DNA of 62,810 nucleotides from Candidatus Peribacteraceae bacterium (GTDB taxonomy: Bacteria > Patescibacteriota > Gracilibacteria > Peribacterales > Peribacteraceae): positions 47,203 through 110,012 of the forward strand of contig JASMHZ010000001.1 of the NCBI GenBank assembly GCA_030750465.1, in the 5' to 3' direction. Shown here one piece after another: positions 10,711 through 59,427 of the stretch. Below the pieces are notes generated by a model. The model made no database searches. It saw only the letters and a program-made list of their open reading frames with translations, and was not told the DNA's origin. A program made the position numbers and the translations under genes. The number at the start of each line of letters is the position of its first letter. Positions within the stretch are counted from its first letter, which is position 1.

Positions 10711-11874
10711 TTAAGTAACAATCTCTTCAACCTTGCCTGACTTCACAGCTGACGCAATCTCCATCGCCACTCTTTCTCCAACACTTATTGAATCACCGTA
10801 CAAGTAACGCGTATAAGGAGTTGCGACTGTACCGGGTGAACCAGGGATTCTCATGGAAACATCAAATATTACAATATCCTCGCTTCCTTCTTCGGCTGTT
10901 ACAGCACCCTGAAGTGCGAACGGTCCTATCATTCCTTTGGTAGAAGGATCTACCTCTGGAGTCAGATTTTTGACGGCTGATACGAACTTTTCTCCCAGAT
11001 CAAATGCCTTTTCCAGTATCGATTCTTTGACCGTAACTGCGATGTGTCCCGTCTCTATCATCTTTGGACTGATGCCGAATTCAAGAGCATGTTTTTGTTG
11101 AGGCGCCAACATTCTGAAGAATCCATCTAAGTTTGTCTGTCTCCTCATATCCGTTCCCATCAATTCCAGTTCACCTGATAGTGGTGAATAGAAAAAGTTG
11201 AAGTTCACATGAGCGCCCACTATAAACTCTTCGATAGTTGCATCGCGCCAATTTGATGCAACTTTGCCTTCTTTCTCGAGTTTAGCTCCTTCCTTTCCCC
11301 ATGATTTCTTATCGTTTGCGATAAAAAATGCACGTTCATAAGTTCGTTCTGCTTCATTTGCCTTAACAAGAACCGGACAATCGATCTCATCAGGCGACTT
11401 GAAGATCTTGGGAATTCTAATACCTGCAAGATTAAGCAAATCATACTGGGTAAAGTGCTGATCGCGCTCTTCAACTCTGAGTAAGTATCGTGATCCGAAT
11501 ATCGGAACCATGAAATTATTCTCGACCTGAGCAAAGTCATCAAAGTAAACCCAGAAGTATCTGTTGTGAATGAATATGGTATTTAAGTCTCTTAAGTTTC
11601 TCTGCACATCCTCATTCAAAATGTCTTGGAACTGATCAACAACAATTAATTCATCAATACAACCAATATCATCCGACCTGTGACCTGTAACCTGTGACCT
11701 GCGACTCTTATAATACTTCTCATAAGTCTTCTCCCTCCCCTTCCTCGCAACACAAACAGTTTTAAATCCGTGTTTCTTGGCTCCGTGGCAGACGTCAAGT
11801 GCTGAATGTCCGCCAAGAACACCTATTGTTAGGTTCTTTAAGTCGTAGCCTTTGAGTAATTCATCGGTATTCAT
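10711..11874 (-). CDS. purP: archaeal-type FAICAR synthetase (PurP-like ATP-grasp), paralogue 1
   Basis: 387 aa. IGVLGGHSALDVCHGAKKHGFKTV..KGREKTY aligns with paralogue 2 and the PurP family (DUF1246/DUF1297). It carries an in-frame insert encoded by an ACCTGTR microsatellite. Confidence 0.75.
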   Translation of the reverse strand: MNTDELLKGYDLKNLTIGVLGGHSALDVCHGAKKHGFKTVCVARKGREKTYEKYYKSRRSQVTGHRSDDIGCIDELIVVDQFQDILNEDVQRNLRDLNTIFIHNRYFWVYFDDFAQVENNFMVPIFGSRYLLRVEERDQHFTQYDLLNLAGIRIPKIFKSPDEIDCPVLVKANEAERTYERAFFIANDKKSWGKEGAKLEKEGKVASNWRDATIEEFIVGAHVNFNFFYSPLSGELELMGTDMRRQTNLDGFFRMLAPQQKHALEFGISPKMIETGHIAVTVKESILEKAFDLGEKFVSAVKNLTPEVDPSTKGMIGPFALQGAVTAEEGSEDIVIFDVSMRIPGSPGTVATPYTRYLYGDSISVGERVAMEIASAVKSGKVEEIVT

Positions 11875-11920
11875 TTGGCTTGTCGCTAATTGTTAATTGT
11901 TAATTGTTAATTGTCAATTG

Positions 11921-12979
11921 TCATCCTAATACATCCTCCAATCTCCCCTGCTCAATTGCCTGCTTAATATCTCTAGAAAGCCTCCGCCCCGTACTCATAG
12001 GCTCGGAGTATCTGAGAGCTGTGTAAGGAGAACCTTCAACGAACGGATTTGTACCCGCAACAATCCTTGCGCTTATCTCGAATACGAAAATTTCAAGCTT
12101 TCTTGTAACAATTGTCTCTAAACAGAACGGGCCGAATAAACCTTTCCCTCCACAAAGTTCCTGACTCGTTTTTATCACCCTCTCACCCATATCGAACATT
12201 TCGGGAAGCAATGACTCTCTGACCACAACAGGGATGTTGCCTACAATCGTGTAGCTGGTGTGAATTTTGGCTACTAATTGATCTTCCGCCTTTATTCGCC
12301 CAATTGAATCTGCATTGGACTCGTATCTCTTATCAAAACTCATGATTTCAAGCTCTTCTGTAACGGGCGAATAGAAGTAATGGATATAAAGTGGAACCCC
12401 AACAATGTATTCCTGTATTGCGAAGTCATTCTGATCCGGATATTTGCGGTTTTTAACTTCATAGAATTGCTCGGGAGTCTTTGCAACGAAATATCCAAAT
12501 CCCCCACCTGCTCCATGGAATTTAATAATTACAGGCTTGTCTATATCTTCAGGTTTTGGATAAAGTCTTGGAAGTTTAAGGCCCGATTTCTCCATCCATA
12601 CCCTCTCTTTGTTTCTGTCCGATTCCCATTCCAGAATATCCTTTGTGCCATAGTACATTGCCTGGAGTTTTTGTACTCTGTCATGGCCCATGTAGGAGAT
12701 AAATGATCCGTGAGGAATTACAATTGCATTTCTTTTAATGAGCTCCTCCTCCAGCTTTTCGTCCCAGTCCGCGAATTTATTTAATGTGAGTATTTCATCT
12801 GCAACAGGGTAATTTTCTGTATAAAGCTTCTCGCGCCCTTTCTCGCAAATCGCAAGCGTTTTCATTCCTTCGTCTTTGGCTCCTTTAAGGATTTGGAGTG
12901 CGCTGTGGCTGCCAAGAGTCGCGATCACGAAGTCCTTCGGATCTGTAGATGCCGGCAATATGGGATGCGGAGTTGCCAT
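11921..12979 (-). CDS. purP: archaeal-type FAICAR synthetase (PurP-like ATP-grasp), paralogue 2
   Basis: 352 aa. IATLGSHSALQILKGAKDEGMKTLAI..KGREKLY is the PurP N-terminal signature, followed by an ATP-grasp C-terminal half. Confidence 0.8.
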   Translation of the reverse strand: MATPHPILPASTDPKDFVIATLGSHSALQILKGAKDEGMKTLAICEKGREKLYTENYPVADEILTLNKFADWDEKLEEELIKRNAIVIPHGSFISYMGHDRVQKLQAMYYGTKDILEWESDRNKERVWMEKSGLKLPRLYPKPEDIDKPVIIKFHGAGGGFGYFVAKTPEQFYEVKNRKYPDQNDFAIQEYIVGVPLYIHYFYSPVTEELEIMSFDKRYESNADSIGRIKAEDQLVAKIHTSYTIVGNIPVVVRESLLPEMFDMGERVIKTSQELCGGKGLFGPFCLETIVTRKLEIFVFEISARIVAGTNPFVEGSPYTALRYSEPMSTGRRLSRDIKQAIEQGRLEDVLG

Positions 12980-53342: not shown

Positions 53343-55052
53343 CTACCAAGAATAGTATGTACCTCTTACGACAGGAGAACTAAACGGAACCCATTGGAAT
53401 GTACTAGTTCCATCTGTCCAAGTAATGTCTCCGGCTGATCCGATTCTTCCAGGATTGCTTATAACCACCTGAAGACTGGGGCGCTGAGCTCCATTCGGAA
53501 TCGTAACATCTCCGTAAAGCACCAAAGTTCTGGGAGAACCTTTGAAGGTACCAAAGTTCGCGGGTATTGATGAACAAGTGACGGAAGTTCCAGCAGTTAC
53601 ACAACTCAAACGATCAGTTGATCCGGGCGTACTCATCTCCACATTAGAAACTGTTACGCCGTCTCCAAGGCCAAGGGTGAATACAATATCAGTTACACGC
53701 AAGTCCGATGTACCACCCGAAGTCACCCCTGCAAATTTAAATGATCCTATTGGAATATCGGTACCGGCAACCAGAAGTTCTTTAGCTGACCCGGCATTAG
53801 AAACACCCCCGACCACGGATTGGCTTGTTTCATGCTCAGGGGAATCGTCTGAGGACCCTTGATTGTATGAACGATTGCTCCAATAGCCGTCTCCTTCAAT
53901 ATTTATTCCCTGAACTTCAACGTCTTCTCCGCTTACTCCTCCGCTTTTGTGCCCGCTGACTATGGCACGAACATACACATGACGTGTTTCCTGCTTTTGA
54001 ATTACAAGAGAACCATTTTTCACGTTCAAAACATAATGCCGATTACCCGCTGTCGCATCTTTATTTGCTCTACCCAGATATTTCCCATTCTCATTGTAAA
54101 CTTTCACGGCCTCGATCGAAGTAATACTGCTTGCCGCCGTAAAAATTACTGTGATCTTTGTGACATCCAAAGGCTCTGCTTCAGGAAATATGGATACAGC
54201 CGCAAGTGCGGGAGAATCTTCACCCAAAAGAATGAATCCCGGCTTCCTTGTGGCATCAGGATCGGAATCATATATAGAGGAAACAGAAGAATCAGAGGAA
54301 CCAGAAGAAACAGATGATTCGTCTTCATCGATGCTAGTAGAATTATCTTCTTGCACCTCTTCTGTTTCTTCTGTTTCTTTTGCTTCCTCTGTTTCCTTTT
54401 CATGCAATCCTAATTCAGCATCAATTAACTTCTGAAGCTCCCCTTGATCAAGCGCCACAAACCGCGCAACCAGTCGGCCAACCTGTCCGCGAGTAAGTTT
54501 GTGTCCGGGAACTAAGTTCAAATCTAAATTACGGCCTTTCGCTGCACGAATATATGGTTCATACCATTCCTCTCTGCATTCAATACAAAGATCTGGTTGG
54601 ATATCATAAATATTAATTAGAACCTTGAGCGCTTCCTCGTATTGAACTGACCTTGATGGCTCAAAAAACCAAAACTGCGGATCAACCCCTTCCCTAGAAT
54701 TACCATGGACTATTCCATACTGCTTAGCTCTGCAAATCGGCTCTGCAAACCATGCGTCGGAAGCAACGTCTGGAAAACATGAAAGAATAATTACTTCATC
54801 GATAAAGGAACGACCTTGCAAACCTTGATGCAAAAGCATCGTTATCTTCATGAACTCGGCACGATTAAGGAGTTTGTTGAATCTAAACGACCCATCCGGA
54901 TTGCCATCCAGTATTCCTTCTTCTGTAAGAGCGCCGACTGAAACTTTCGTAGCGAGATCTGGAGCAGAGTCTGTGTAAGGAAGCTCAGTATCGTACGAAA
55001 GTGCAAAAGCAACAGAGGGTATTAGGCCGATGATGAGGATCAAGAGTCGCAT
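53343..55052 (-). CDS. secreted surface protein with SLH-like N-terminal repeats and beta-rich C-terminal region
   Basis: 569 aa with a signal peptide, SLH-like segments (..FPDVASDAWFAEPICRAKQYGIVHGN..), an acidic/Ser-rich linker ([28 protein letters not shown]) and a Thr/Gly/Ser-rich beta region. Confidence 0.65.
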   Translation of the reverse strand: MRLLILIIGLIPSVAFALSYDTELPYTDSAPDLATKVSVGALTEEGILDGNPDGSFRFNKLLNRAEFMKITMLLHQGLQGRSFIDEVIILSCFPDVASDAWFAEPICRAKQYGIVHGNSREGVDPQFWFFEPSRSVQYEEALKVLINIYDIQPDLCIECREEWYEPYIRAAKGRNLDLNLVPGHKLTRGQVGRLVARFVALDQGELQKLIDAELGLHEKETEEAKETEETEEVQEDNSTSIDEDESSVSSGSSDSSVSSIYDSDPDATRKPGFILLGEDSPALAAVSIFPEAEPLDVTKITVIFTAASSITSIEAVKVYNENGKYLGRANKDATAGNRHYVLNVKNGSLVIQKQETRHVYVRAIVSGHKSGGVSGEDVEVQGINIEGDGYWSNRSYNQGSSDDSPEHETSQSVVGGVSNAGSAKELLVAGTDIPIGSFKFAGVTSGGTSDLRVTDIVFTLGLGDGVTVSNVEMSTPGSTDRLSCVTAGTSVTCSSIPANFGTFKGSPRTLVLYGDVTIPNGAQRPSLQVVISNPGRIGSAGDITWTDGTSTFQWVPFSSPVVRGTYYSW

Positions 55053-57607: not shown

Positions 57608-58621
57608 TTAAGCCGATATTAAAGTCGCTCCAAGCTCAGGCTGTAGCGGATTGTGCACGATGATTGGGACTTTATTTTCCCTTGCAAGTTCAACAGCTGA
57701 CGGGTGAACCACGCCTGCTGAATAACCTTTCTCACCACAAGCCCTATGCGCCTGCTCATACGATAATGAAACCACTGTCTCACCTTGCGACTCAGAACCA
57801 TTCGGATCTGCGAGCATTATCGGAAAATCTTTTTCTATTGAGCATATTGCTTCTCTGCTTCTTGCTGATCTGGTAGAAACTGTGACTTCTACTGCCGTGT
57901 CATCCGAGTATCCCCTGCTATTTCCATTATGAGGGAGATAGCCGGGGAAAATTGGTGCACCACCTGTGCCATTCGAACGACAACCTCGAAGAAATTCAGA
58001 AATTGCTCCTCGTGTATAACCCCTCATAGCTTCTGTGCCATCTAATCCTCTTATTTCCTCTTCATGTTGCCTTAGGTCAAATAGCCTAAAAGGAGAATCA
58101 TCATTAAACATCTCACGAGCACGATTACAATAATTGTTAGCTGTATCTAATTCACCGACTCCGGTAATTGAACTGGGAGGCCTGTCATCCATATGAAGCA
58201 AACTGTCACATCCCGAATTAACAACATTATAACCAGTACCTCTTTGAAAAATTCGCCCTACTGCTAGATCCAGATCCTCTAACGGACCAATTGGTTTGGC
58301 AATACTTGTATAAGGACGATGAGTTCTACTTCCTTGTAAAAGCTGTTTAACAGAACGCCTCAACTCATTAATCATTGCAACTGCGTTTTCAACTTCCTGT
58401 CTACCAAGTAAGTTGCCAACAGAAATCAAATCACCTGTCATCATGCAACCCTCCCGTTTGAATGCCGAGAGAACTACCGGGTTAAATCTTGTTTCAGAAT
58501 CCTCCCGTAATCGATTAATGTGCGCTTCCACCTTACACGTCTGGCTCCCACCAATCTTTGATACAACAGGAGTATCTGGCTGTAATCCAAGAGCCTCTAT
58601 ATGTTCATCGAATGTAATCAT
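57608..58621 (-). CDS. amino-acid-kinase family protein, aspartokinase-like catalytic domain without ACT domains
   Basis: 337 aa. N-terminal VVSKIGGS, the C-terminal block RGYSDDTA..EKDFPIMLADPN..LSYEQAHRACGEKGYSAGVVHPSAVELARENKVPIIVHN, and the end ..GATLI. Confidence 0.7.
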   Translation of the reverse strand: MITFDEHIEALGLQPDTPVVSKIGGSQTCKVEAHINRLREDSETRFNPVVLSAFKREGCMMTGDLISVGNLLGRQEVENAVAMINELRRSVKQLLQGSRTHRPYTSIAKPIGPLEDLDLAVGRIFQRGTGYNVVNSGCDSLLHMDDRPPSSITGVGELDTANNYCNRAREMFNDDSPFRLFDLRQHEEEIRGLDGTEAMRGYTRGAISEFLRGCRSNGTGGAPIFPGYLPHNGNSRGYSDDTAVEVTVSTRSARSREAICSIEKDFPIMLADPNGSESQGETVVSLSYEQAHRACGEKGYSAGVVHPSAVELARENKVPIIVHNPLQPELGATLISA

Positions 58622-58630
58622 TATTAAGTT

Positions 58631-58666
58631 AAATAAAAAAATAAAAAGCCTCCCTATTTGGAAGGC
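58631..58666 (-). terminator. attenuator terminator 2
   Basis: Minus strand GCCTTCC-AAATA-GGGAGGC followed by TTTTTATTTTTTTATTT. Confidence 0.65.
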
Positions 58667-58673
58667 GCAAGCT

Positions 58674-58760
58674 TTAAGTATGGAGTCGCTTCCTCCTTCC
58701 CGGGGGGAAAGTCTTCTTTGTCTTCTTTACCAAGCCGATAGTGGATAAACAAGAAAGCAT
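58674..58760 (-). CDS. candidate Lys/Thr leader peptide 2 (28 aa)
   Basis: MLSCLSTIGLVKKTKKTFPPGRRKRLHT. The KKTKK block is encoded by AAGAAGACAAAGAAG, and GAAGGGG lies 9 nt upstream as a possible SD. Confidence 0.5.
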   Translation of the reverse strand: MLSCLSTIGLVKKTKKTFPPGRRKRLHT

Positions 58761-58787
58761 AAAATAAAACCCCTTCTCGGGAAGGGG
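58761..58787 (-). terminator. attenuator terminator 1
   Basis: Minus strand CCCCTTC-CCGA-GAAGGGG followed by TTTTATTTT. Confidence 0.7.
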
Positions 58788-58810
58788 CGCGTGTGATCTA
58801 AATTTAGGCA

Positions 58811-58879
58811 TCAACAGCAGTCCTTCCCTAGGTGGGAGGTCTTCTTTGCCTTCTTCTGGCTTGGAAGTGCTGAATGCAT
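58811..58879 (-). CDS. candidate Lys/Thr leader peptide 1 (22 aa)
   Basis: MHSALPSQKKAKKTSHLGKDCC. The KKAKK block is encoded by AAGAAGGCAAAGAAG. Confidence 0.5.
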   Translation of the reverse strand: MHSALPSQKKAKKTSHLGKDCC

Positions 58880-58888
58880 AACGAGGCG

Positions 58889-58916
58889 ACTATAACTGAT
58901 AAAATGCGGGAGTCAA
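58889..58916 (-). promoter_or_regulatory. sigma70-type promoter of the attenuator/aspartokinase-like unit
   Basis: Minus strand TTGACT (58916-58911), 16 nt spacer, TATAGT (58894-58889). The leader-1 ATG follows 9 nt downstream. Confidence 0.55.
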
Positions 58917-58920
58917 ATAT

Positions 58921-59427
58921 TTACCACTCATAAACATAAATCCTATCAGTCCCTCCAAAATGAGCGGGTACTTCCACTTCTTTAACAGGAGTTTTATCCC
59001 AAAATTGGAAGGCATGTGATATCACTTTGGTTCCGGGCTTCAATTCTTTATCAAATTTCTTACCAAGTTTTACCATAAGGCTCGTGATCATGTAGAGAAA
59101 TACACAATCTGCATCAGAAATGTCTGCCTTGAATGCATCTCCGAAACGCAAATCAACATCTGACCTCAAAAATAATTTTCTTATGCGTCCCAAGAACCAA
59201 ACTACCGGAACTATCTCGTACCCGACAGCACGAATTCCCGGATACTTTTTTTTGGCCCTGATAAGCATCCTTCCATCCCCTGACCCCAAATCATATATAA
59301 CTTCATTTCCCTTAAGCCCCGCAGCTTCAATCATCGCCATATTGGTTCTCTTTGGAGTTGGCACAAACGGAACTTTTGCCCATATCGTTCCAATTACAGT
59401 TGAAACAAATGCAAACACTATGAGCAA
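58921..59427 (-). CDS. class I SAM-dependent methyltransferase with N-terminal TM helix
   Basis: 168 aa with the SAM motif I VIYDLGSGDGRMLI. Confidence 0.75.
   Translation of the reverse strand: MLIVFAFVSTVIGTIWAKVPFVPTPKRTNMAMIEAAGLKGNEVIYDLGSGDGRMLIRAKKKYPGIRAVGYEIVPVVWFLGRIRKLFLRSDVDLRFGDAFKADISDADCVFLYMITSLMVKLGKKFDKELKPGTKVISHAFQFWDKTPVKEVEVPAHFGGTDRIYVYEW

Follow-up and report, generated by a model that had tools for sequence, protein, structure and literature searches.

Tandem leader-peptide attenuators predicted upstream of an ACT-less aspartokinase-like gene in a Peribacteria genome

INTRODUCTION

How might a bacterium control the first enzyme of the aspartate pathway when that enzyme lacks allosteric ACT domains? 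The question is raised by a region of the minus strand (58916-58631) in a 62.8-kb stretch of DNA from a Candidatus Peribacteraceae bacterium (the window, in which all coordinates of the locus are given), which lies directly before a gene for an ACT-less aspartokinase-like protein. A preliminary description of this DNA had proposed that two homologous units in the region, each with a short open reading frame (ORF) containing Lys codons and with four pairing segments, act as ribosome-mediated attenuators. Our analysis indicates, with a probability of roughly 0.8, that the region constitutes tandem ribosome-mediated (leader-peptide) transcription attenuators controlling the aspartokinase gene, and the four-segment proposal is supported by both comparative and thermodynamic evidence. 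In uncultured, reduced-genome lineages of the candidate phyla radiation (CPR), cis-regulatory RNA is almost uncharted, and these leaders would provide a clear conserved example of attenuation.

RESULTS

Two homologous units precede the aspartokinase-like gene

The promoter, the two units and the four pairing segments with a U-run terminator in each unit were all located as the preliminary description had them (Table 1), the promoter (58916-58889) being the sole 10/12 match in a 2.2-kb scan and the segments pairing as claimed on folding. The 17-nt block said to be shared by the units, AAGAAGRCAAAGAAGAC, occurs exactly twice in the window (58855-58839 and 58727-58711), both copies being read in frame as K-K-x-K-K-T; all other matches need 3 mismatches, and block matches reached at least 4 in 0 of 100 shuffles. 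The scan for terminator-like sites returned 7, compared with 1.5 expected from shuffles, and the folding stability of the whole leader exceeds that of its shuffled versions (z = -3.45). In unit 1, the duplex between segments 2 and 3 (2:3) reaches -14.2 kcal/mol, as compared with -12.7 kcal/mol for the terminator and -7.5 kcal/mol for the hairpin between segments 1 and 2 (1:2). In unit 2, the 5' arm of terminator 2 can alternatively pair with segment 2', the fold from segment 2' through segment 3' having an energy of -15.3 kcal/mol.

An ATG that overlaps the stop of ORF1 (TGATG, 58816-58812, minus strand) opens a 45-codon frame through terminator 1, in frame with ORF2. Among the other leaders this overlap is common only to L015, and it is probably incidental.

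Table 1. Features of the tandem leader and of the gene behind it, in window coordinates
Feature	Position	Strand	Basis or detail
-35 hexamer TTGACT	58911..58916	-	promoter scan
-10 hexamer TATAGT	58889..58894	-	promoter scan; 16-nt spacer from -35
Predicted transcription start, G, 7th nt past -10 box	58882	-	conserved spacing; 3-nt 5' untranslated region to ORF1
Leader ORF1, MHSALPSQKKAKKTSHLGKDCC then stop	58811..58879	-	ORF translation; start, frame and stop kept in 11 homologous leaders
Unit 1 putative regulatory codons AAG AAG GCA AAG AAG ACC (K9 K10 A11 K12 K13 T14)	58838..58855	-	in-frame reading
Unit 1 segment 1, ACCTCCC, 5' arm of 1:2 hairpin	58834..58840	-	folding
Unit 1 segment 2, GGGAAGG + extension ACTGC, partner of segment 1 or segment 3	58817..58828	-	folding
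Unit 1 segment 3, GCG-CC-CCTTCCC, which forms the 5' arm of terminator 1 or pairs with segment 2 in the antiterminator	58779..58790	-	duplex folding
Terminator 1	58761..58788	-	stem-loop 58788-58769 (GCCCCTTC CCGA GAAGGGGT), -12.7 kcal/mol; U-run 58768-58761, UUUAUUUU
Leader ORF2, MLSCLSTIGLVKKTKKTFPPGRRKRLHT then stop	58674..58760	-	ORF translation; homologous second ORF in L004
Unit 2 putative regulatory codons AAG AAG ACA AAG AAG ACT (K12 K13 T14 K15 K16 T17)	58710..58727	-	
Unit 2 hairpin	58695..58711	-	segment 1' CTTTCCC 58711-58705, loop CCC, segment 2' GGGAAGG 58701-58695; -8.3 kcal/mol
Terminator 2	58631..58666	-	stem-loop 58666-58648 (GCCTTCC AAATA GGGAGGC), -10.7 kcal/mol; 17-nt U-rich run 58647-58631
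Gene for ACT-less aspartokinase-like protein, 337 aa, predicted to be regulated	57608..58621	-	profile, structure and sequence comparison

The leader belongs to a family that mostly precedes aspartokinase genes

Eleven further homologous leaders were identified, all of them in Peribacteria/Peregrinibacteria (Table 2). Two (L004 and L010) were reached via homologs of the kinase; a degenerate DNA pattern comprising segment 1, segment 2 and the stop, run over 185,579 species genomes, gave 7 sites, every one in a Peribacteria/Peregrinibacteria metagenome-assembled genome (MAG); and a covariance model built from ten leaders added 2 more upstream of aspartokinase genes (L104 and L105). Nine of the 11 leaders precede aspartokinase genes, and with the window counted 10 of the 12 leader loci precede an aspartokinase gene or its ACT-less relative. 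Seven of those nine aspartokinases have ACT domains or fall in the ACT-bearing clade, one of them (L019) being a truncated ORF in a low-coverage MAG. The leader is thus not specific to the ACT-less kinase: the link to an ACT-less gene drawn in the preliminary description holds for the window itself, whereas most relatives are single units in front of ACT-bearing aspartokinases.

Table 2. Unit-1 peptides, covarying antiterminator pairs and downstream genes of the leader family
Locus	Unit-1 peptide	Covarying pair	Downstream gene
Window	MHSALPSQKKAKKTSHLGKDCC	U.G	ACT-less kinase
L004	MQIARLTKKTTNNTYHAGRGIC		ACT-less kinase
L010	MQLALLMKKMMKTSRPGKDSC	A-U	ACT-less kinase
L014	MQLSLLKQKKAKKTSHTGKDSC	A-U	PurN-like protein
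L015	MQHCSSMKKTTKMTSLPGKDGC	G-C	aspartokinase, AA_kinase + ACT by Pfam
L016	MQFFPVTSTKWQKTSLTGMGRC		unknown 136-aa protein
L017	MQRVPSMKKMTKTTSLTGKDGC	G-C	aspartokinase, AA_kinase + ACT by Pfam
L018	MQLFATSKKMTKKTSLTGKDCC	U-A	aspartokinase, AA_kinase + ACT by Pfam
L019	MQHVASMKKTTKKTSRTGKDGC	G-C	relative of ACT-bearing clade, assigned by tblastn
L020	MQLVSSMKKTTKTSRSGKDGC	G.U	aspartokinase, AA_kinase + ACT by Pfam
L104	MQRFVTMKKMTKTSLSGKDGC	G-C	relative of ACT-bearing clade, assigned by tblastn
L105	(GTG)QHIVSTMKKATKKTTPRGTDGCSM	G-C	relative of ACT-bearing clade, assigned by tblastn

The cassette of promoter, ORF, hairpin and terminator is kept in the 11 other loci despite different upstream genes, and the leader DNA is more conserved than the kinase (33-34% protein identity). 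The covariance model from unit-1 leaders also matches unit 2 of the window (58727-58692, E = 0.017) and detects no copies in the window or the loci beyond one per locus and this unit 2; the possibility of a generic dispersed repeat, which the preliminary description had allowed for, is therefore set aside. By comparison, no leader was found, by eye or by the covariance model, before the dapA-aspartokinase operons of L001/L013 and L106. In these loci the kinase follows another gene nearly without a gap. Pfam identifies that gene as dapA at L001 (3041-4957) and L013, both with ACT-less kinases, and at L106 (~850-1200, ACT-bearing clade) its C-terminus is DapA-like as judged by eye.

The leader nearest to that of the window, with peptide MQLSLLKQKKAKKTSHTGKDSC and a terminator, is found in a Peregrinibacteria MAG (L014, 1605-1526, minus strand) before a gene (1483-557) whose 308-aa product has a weak PurN/formyltransferase-like domain and is not a kinase. 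At L016 (4474-4395, minus strand), a degenerate copy with peptide MQFFPVTSTKWQKTSLTGMGRC, a segment 2 of GGGATGG and a weaker antiterminator is followed by ORFs at 4325-3915 and 3601-2951, encoding the unknown 136-aa protein and a TMEM175-type K+ channel; this leader may be decaying or re-purposed. Between the terminator and the aspartokinase ATG of L004, L010, L015, L017, L019, L020, L104 and L105, at 20-60 nt from the start codon, there are long C/U-rich tracts (for example, CCCCTCCTTCCCCACCTCCCCATG and TTCCTCCCCCTGACTTCCTCTTCATTTCCCCTCCCTCTCATG); they have no Shine-Dalgarno (SD) sequence, and their sequence complements that of segments 2 and 4, which are purine-rich. A DNA pattern made from unit 2 matched two Croceicoccus loci among genome contigs, and the one inspected proved to be an unrelated hairpin with an SD sequence before a thiC-like gene.

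Leader ORFs are conserved and enriched in codons of the aspartate family

The small ORF is kept in 12 of 12 unit-1 leaders, starting with ATG in 11 and GTG in 1, and is 21-22 codons long except in L105, where it has 25. Ten leaders stop at UGA, L104 has UAG in its place and L105 ends in UAA. Indels within the ORF are of 3 nt (L010, L020, L104 and L105), with one exception: in L105 the UGA is lost through a 1-nt insertion, and an in-frame UAA follows two codons on. By comparison, the spacer 3' of the ORF stop varies freely in sequence.

The codon content of these ORFs is distinctive. We counted the 8 codons before segment 1 in 12 units, i.e., ten unit-1 leaders (without L104 and L105) and two second units. 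In total, 79 of the 96 codons (82%) encode Lys (37), Thr (29), Met (10), Asn (2) or Ile (1), as compared with 25.8% in the window's own genes, and the blocks of L104 and L105 contain 8 of 8 and 7 of 8 such codons, respectively. No Glu, Arg or Gly codon occurs among the 96, though a single transition turns AAG into GAG or AGG. Lys is encoded by AAG in 37 of 37 cases, whereas the window genes use AAA for 57% of Lys; where AAG is replaced, it is by ACG, ATG or AAT, which keeps an aspartate-family amino acid, and never by GAG or AGG. In the loop of hairpin 1:2 and the residues following it, the encoded amino acids vary (H/R/L, L/P/T/S and C/S/G) while RNA pairing is kept, indicating selection on codons in the block and on RNA structure downstream of it. 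This contrast between block and hairpin is the signature of a leader-peptide attenuator as judged from sequence comparison.

The preliminary description had named loss of the ORFs or Lys codons in homologs as evidence against its proposal; the 11 other loci instead keep the ORF, the frame and a Lys/Thr/Met block. Its view that Lys codons are sensed agrees with the conserved in-frame Lys block and is too narrow for the family as a whole, in which the sensed set appears to be Lys, Thr and Met, together with Asn in one locus, rather than Lys alone.

Alternative RNA structures depend on the modelled position of the ribosome

RNAalifold predicts two helices within the ORF region. Helix P0 pairs GCAGC (codons 1-3) with GCUGC directly before the stop, and hairpin 1:2 pairs CCUCCC with GGGAAGG; together they are almost invariant, with 97.7% of cells paired and one compensatory change. 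Further downstream, 10 of 12 leaders share an unchanged segment 3 core, CCTTCCC. The 3' arms of the terminators differ and shift register, such that in L014 and L019 part of the core falls in the terminator loop; conservation of the core where the register shifts argues that segment 3 is conserved for pairing with segment 2. In addition, the antiterminator is extended by 3 bp, in which the variable positions of GAC-N-GC and of the GC-N upstream of the core covary through five pair types (Table 2).

Across the family, the 2:3 duplex has an energy of -13 to -16 kcal/mol, as compared with -6 to -9 kcal/mol for hairpin 1:2. A hairpin with a U-run follows the unit-1 ORF in all 11 other loci, the terminators lying mostly between -7.5 and -18 kcal/mol and that of L018 being weak (~-5 kcal/mol). 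The choice between a 2:3 antiterminator and a terminator formed by segments 3 and 4 (3:4), as claimed in the preliminary description, is thus borne out by the strong 2:3 duplex, the invariant core and the one covarying pair.

To place the ribosome in this scheme, its footprint was masked codon by codon in six leaders and the RNA downstream was folded at equilibrium. The terminator probability reached its minimum with the A-site in the Lys/Thr/Met block in 6 of 6 leaders, climbed to 0.8-1.0 a few codons past it and remained high to the stop, with one exception. In unit 1 of the window it was lowest (0.00-0.18) with the A-site at codons 10-12 and at least 0.94 from codon 14, and in unit 2 it was 0.04 at codons 14-15 and at least 0.99 from codon 17. 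In L004 it was low through the TKKTTNNT block and about 0.8 past it, and in L010 it was at most 0.25 up to codon 12 and 0.90 from codon 13. L104 and L105 gave 0.00 through their blocks, followed by 0.63-0.84 from codon 16 and 0.99 from codon 15, respectively. The exception is the end of unit 2, where the last two codons gave 0.99 and 0.15 at the default footprint edge, with the modelled ribosome overlapping the 5' arm of terminator 2. With no ribosome, the unit-1 leaders of the window, L004 and L010 gave terminator probabilities of 0.86-0.95. In the folding model, therefore, segment 2 becomes free when the ribosome is on the Lys block, and the terminator is restored when it is farther on or at the stop, which is the geometry that the preliminary description had envisaged.

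ORF1 is probably translated from a near-leaderless transcript

No SD sequence is present at any leader ORF. All 11 leaders inspected keep the -35 element, TTGAC followed by A, T or C, and 9 of them have a 16-nt spacer; L105 combines TTGACA with a poor -10. The -10 element TANNNT lies exactly 9 nt before the ORF1 ATG in 10 of 12 leaders. Of the 11 leaders whose -10 box can be read, 9 have a G at the 7th nt past it.

The same arrangement is seen at ordinary genes of the window. An SD motif, weak in every case, precedes 7 of the 47 longest ORFs, and TANNNT is enriched 8-10 nt before ordinary gene starts (9 genes, as compared with roughly 1.2 expected per position), suggesting that near-leaderless mRNAs are common in this Peribacteria genome. 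Examples of TANNNT before a start are ruvA (5010), rplJ (32098), 42662 and 53343-55052. ORF1 is most likely translated from a near-leaderless mRNA with a predicted start at 58882, which fits the SD-less, near-leaderless gene starts of the genome. In the window as in L004, the ORF2 ATG lies 9 nt past the 3' arm of terminator 1, which is purine-rich.

The downstream gene encodes an ACT-less aspartokinase-like protein

Assignment of the 337-aa protein draws on several comparisons. Pfam gives a weak, sub-threshold AA_kinase match alone, and aspartate kinase models are its sole NCBIfam matches, all far under their cut-offs. Positions 17-322 of the profile of its family align to residues 3-289 of E. 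coli LysC (2j0w), i.e., the whole catalytic domain, and the same profile also aligns to the catalytic domain of the Arabidopsis aspartokinase (2cdq). With an AlphaFold model (pLDDT, the predicted local distance difference test score, 71), the best 42 Foldseek matches in the PDB are all aspartokinases, with template modelling (TM) scores of up to 0.55. Furthermore, comparison with the catalytic part of an ACT-bearing Peribacteria aspartokinase shows 28% identity (E = 9e-19), and one homolog of the kinase sits 21 nt 3' of dapA. The C-terminal ACT domains have no match in the protein, which ends with the catalytic domain at residue 337. The label ACT-less aspartokinase-like, already given in the preliminary description, is thus justified, and aspartokinase activity is predicted.

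The family is tiny, with 4 homologs in 5.8 billion clusters; an exhaustive HMMER search retrieved 4 family representatives at E < 1e-30 among 1.8 billion, and a scan of genome contigs with the single kinase protein found no related loci. The earlier characterization of the gene as an orphan agrees with our scan of 46 window ORFs, in which no other aspartate-pathway gene was found. The next gene after the kinase is ComEC, on the opposite strand.

Two units are found with ACT-less kinases in two loci

Tandem units occur in the window and L004 only, both with ACT-less kinases; L010, also ACT-less, has a single unit. The hairpin region of the second unit, ACTTTCCCYCCGGGAARGAGGAAGCG, is nearly identical between the window and L004, despite a kinase identity of only 34%. 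The second unit of L004 (1378-1488) keeps the hairpin and an ORF, MPDVRSITDCTQQTFPPGKRKRRT, and has no U-run terminator; a segment-3-like tract, CCUCCUUCCCC, abuts the kinase start codon there, and this unit may exert translational rather than transcriptional control. That duplication of the unit compensates for lost allostery is an attractive idea, for which two or three lineages provide the basis.

Proposed mechanism

The anatomy, conservation, codon pattern and thermodynamic geometry described above are observed, and from them we infer that the ORFs are translated, that ribosomes stall, that termination is regulated and where transcription starts. In the proposed mechanism, transcription would begin about 3 nt before the ORF1 AUG and a ribosome would load at the near-leaderless 5' end. 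When charged Lys- and Thr-tRNA are ample, the ribosome would pass the KKAKKT block to the stop, 8 nt past segment 2, where it would mask segment 2, allow the 3:4 terminator to form and end transcription at the U-run. When Lys or Thr is scarce, it would stall on the block and cover segment 1, leaving segment 2 (GGGAAGG and its 3-nt extension) free to pair with segment 3 (CCTTCCC and GCN), which would block the terminator and permit read-through. With no ribosome, P0 and hairpin 1:2 would sequester segment 2, making termination the default. Unit 2 would repeat the test, such that a full-length mRNA would need two successive stalls, a demand that should give a tighter response for an enzyme that has lost its ACT domains. 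As the block of the family is one of Lys, Thr and Met (and Asn), the first enzyme of the aspartate pathway would be switched on when any of the pathway's end products runs short.

Alternative explanations and points of tension

Several alternatives were weighed against this mechanism. The element might be a small riboswitch, in which lysine or a related metabolite is bound by an aptamer made up of P0, hairpin 1:2 and a purine-rich internal loop, the ORF is incidental and the ligand stabilises P0 and 1:2 to favour the terminator. Such a reading accommodates the conserved closing helix and hairpin, the competition of the 3' strand of the P0/1:2 structure with the terminator, as in OFF riboswitches, an RNA that begins right at P0, and Lys codons that are AAG alone and could reflect a nucleotide-level constraint. 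Yet a gathering-threshold Rfam search of the window and a search of 58300-59300 at E <= 10 returned chance microRNA/U6atac matches and two tRNAs only, with no match to the lysine riboswitch (RF00168), Thr_leader (RF00506) or other Rfam leader families. Moreover, the supposed ligand loop is a 33-nt one-sided bulge whose 5' half is unconserved and whose 3' half changes codon-wise (AAG to ACG, ATG or AAT, never to GAG or AGG). ORF indels are multiples of 3, bar the 1-nt insertion of L105 with its new in-frame stop, the stop position is kept although UGA becomes UAG in L104, and the start codon and promoter spacing are conserved. We consider a riboswitch very improbable.

A similarly small chance is given to protein-mediated attenuation in the manner of TRAP or PyrR, with an RNA-binding protein reading the AAG/ATG/ACG triplets or the hairpin. 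Back-to-back A-N-G triplets are present in all leaders, and the terminator and antiterminator alternatives exist regardless of the sensor. No candidate RNA-binding regulator adjoins the element at any locus, however, and the triplet variation (AAT, ACC and GCA) is ill-suited to a sequence-specific binder and suits a logic of pathway codons; nor does a binding protein give a reason for the conserved start, frame and stop of the ORF.

Slightly less probable still is arrest of the ribosome by the nascent peptide, or by a macrolide-type drug, at the polybasic K-K-x-K-K (+X+), which would report translation stress rather than the supply of Lys or Thr. Runs of Lys do slow ribosomes; the regulated gene here would nevertheless be an aspartokinase and no resistance gene, and in relatives Lys is swapped for Thr, Met or Asn (TKKTTNNT and MKKMMKT), by which +X+ is lost and aspartate-family codons are kept. 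The least credible proposal, that the hairpins are ordinary terminators or insulators of the upstream methyltransferase gene (59427-58921), which is co-oriented and ends just before the element, and that promoter and ORFs arose by chance, is at odds with the recurrence of the whole cassette behind different upstream genes, with a conservation of leader DNA above that of the kinase and with a segment 3 conserved past the needs of a terminator.

Some observations weigh against ribosome-mediated attenuation itself. At the level of codons, ANN codons encode the aspartate family, such that an A-rich RNA motif in this frame would look partly alike, and frame +2 is likewise mostly stop-free; transversion-only changes, frame-preserving indels and the behaviour of start and stop argue against a mere A-rich motif. 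At the level of structure, covariation of P0 and 1:2 is not significant, 39 of 500 shuffles equalling the observed score for these near-invariant helices, and covariation in the antiterminator amounts to one pair, read by eye from RNAduplex output. Equilibrium folding also disfavours the terminator with the ribosome on early, non-regulatory codons in some leaders, so that discrimination would depend on kinetics outside the equilibrium model, and the L104 terminator is disfavoured even with no ribosome. As for the arrangement of the loci, a 3-nt 5' untranslated region is not strictly leaderless, the second unit of L004 has neither Lys codons nor a clear terminator, two leaders stand before non-kinase genes (L014, PurN-like; L016, unknown protein), and the aspartokinase loci L001/L013 and L106 have no leader and are placed behind dapA instead.

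Other features of the window

The ValRS encoded in the window shares 82% identity with that of Candidatus Peribacter sp. UBA2144, and about 70 of its best 80 matches come from Peribacteria or Peregrinibacteria, which places the window in a Peribacteria (CPR) genome. A second attenuator-like leader lies at 48127-48025 on the minus strand. It comprises a 24-codon ORF, MITTLSEPAVSNTLLASMGSSWWN followed by a stop (48127-48053), which ends in two Trp codons, and a 10-bp hairpin with a U-run (48047-48025) directly before a fused TrpE/TrpG-like (anthranilate synthase-like) gene (48000-46102). A TrpR-family ORF (48470-48195) lies just upstream of it, and the folding simulation found no antiterminator for this leader. 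Two genes upstream of the aspartokinase leader, a predicted secreted protein of 155 aa (59948-59481, minus strand) is extremely rich in Asn, Tyr, Gly and Arg and has no Pfam match. In addition, two adjacent paralogs (10711-12979, minus strand) carry DUF1246 and DUF1297 domains, which we take to be those of PurP-type, archaeal-style FAICAR synthetases and which would presumably be unusual in a bacterium.

DISCUSSION

Our analysis supports a conserved leader family whose input logic would couple Lys, Thr and Met, the three end products of the aspartate pathway, to its single committed enzyme, with a leader peptide that is apparently initiated on a near-leaderless transcript in a genome without SD sites. 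The leaders would show that Peribacteria make and regulate aspartate-family amino acids, and the covariance model together with the codon signature can be used to annotate such leaders in Peribacteria genomes. Furthermore, aspartokinases with and without ACT domains, behind one unit or two, form a natural contrast between allosteric and transcriptional feedback.

A more far-reaching picture would join three elements: an undescribed Peribacteria family of multivalent Lys/Thr/Met attenuators, an essentially leaderless sensing ORF with the first ribosome directly behind the polymerase, and a duplication that replaces lost ACT feedback. Taken together, we regard this combination as tentative and somewhat doubtful. 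If true, a first ribosome following the polymerase would represent minimal transcription-translation coupling in a CPR lineage, and serial transcriptional control would be the only end-product control of the first enzyme of the pathway in ACT-less lineages.

As predicted from the sequence, the mechanism is of the classical trp/thr/his/leu/ilv attenuator type. The novelty lies in the family as a sequence group, its set of input codons, a sensing ORF that is near-leaderless, helix P0 and the tandem arrangement in a CPR lineage; our literature search found no paper on Lys/Thr/Met leaders before aspartokinase genes or on attenuation in Peribacteria. We therefore regard this regulatory finding, from a phylum of which little is known, as solid and extendable, though it introduces no new principle.

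The closest known system is the thrL leader, which contains Thr and Ile codons, has a four-segment terminator/antiterminator design, is multivalent and precedes thrA (aspartokinase I-homoserine dehydrogenase I). As in E. coli thrL, the Peribacteria leaders combine a short ORF rich in end-product codons with a four-segment design, an aspartokinase as the first regulated gene and predicted multivalent sensing. They differ in that their codons are those of Lys, Thr and Met (and Asn) rather than Thr and Ile, with no sequence or structure match to RF00506, in that ORF1 lacks an SD sequence and lies about 3 nt from the predicted 5' end, in the extra P0 helix linking the start and stop regions, and, in the window and L004, in the tandem arrangement; the host, moreover, is a CPR bacterium. 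The preliminary description stated that Lys-codon leader attenuation of an aspartokinase is not the textbook control; leader-peptide control of an aspartokinase is itself textbook knowledge from thrL, which is paired with thrA in E. coli (PMC2659441). The lysine riboswitch (L-box), in turn, controls an aspartokinase gene by lysine supply, often via an intrinsic terminator (PMC2659441). The Peribacteria leaders share with it the position before an aspartokinase gene and the intrinsic terminator; unlike the L-box, a metabolite aptamer of ~180 nt with no ORF, their sensor would be a ribosome reading Lys/Thr/Met codons.

Two further systems bear on the comparison. The lysine (alpha-aminoadipate) cluster of Thermus thermophilus reportedly has a short leader peptide with tandem Lys codons and a terminator that regulate lysine biosynthesis genes, which would be a precedent for attenuation by Lys codons; it belongs to another pathway and phylum, is unrelated in sequence, and is not known to precede an aspartokinase gene, to be multivalent for Thr and Met or to be tandem. 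In tandem riboswitches and T-boxes, two sensor-terminator modules act in series, and read-through needs both to be on, making the response sharper. By comparison, the modules described here would be of the leader-peptide type instead of ligand- or tRNA-binding RNAs, and, with unit 2 as a putatively independent module, they likewise stand two in series before one gene.

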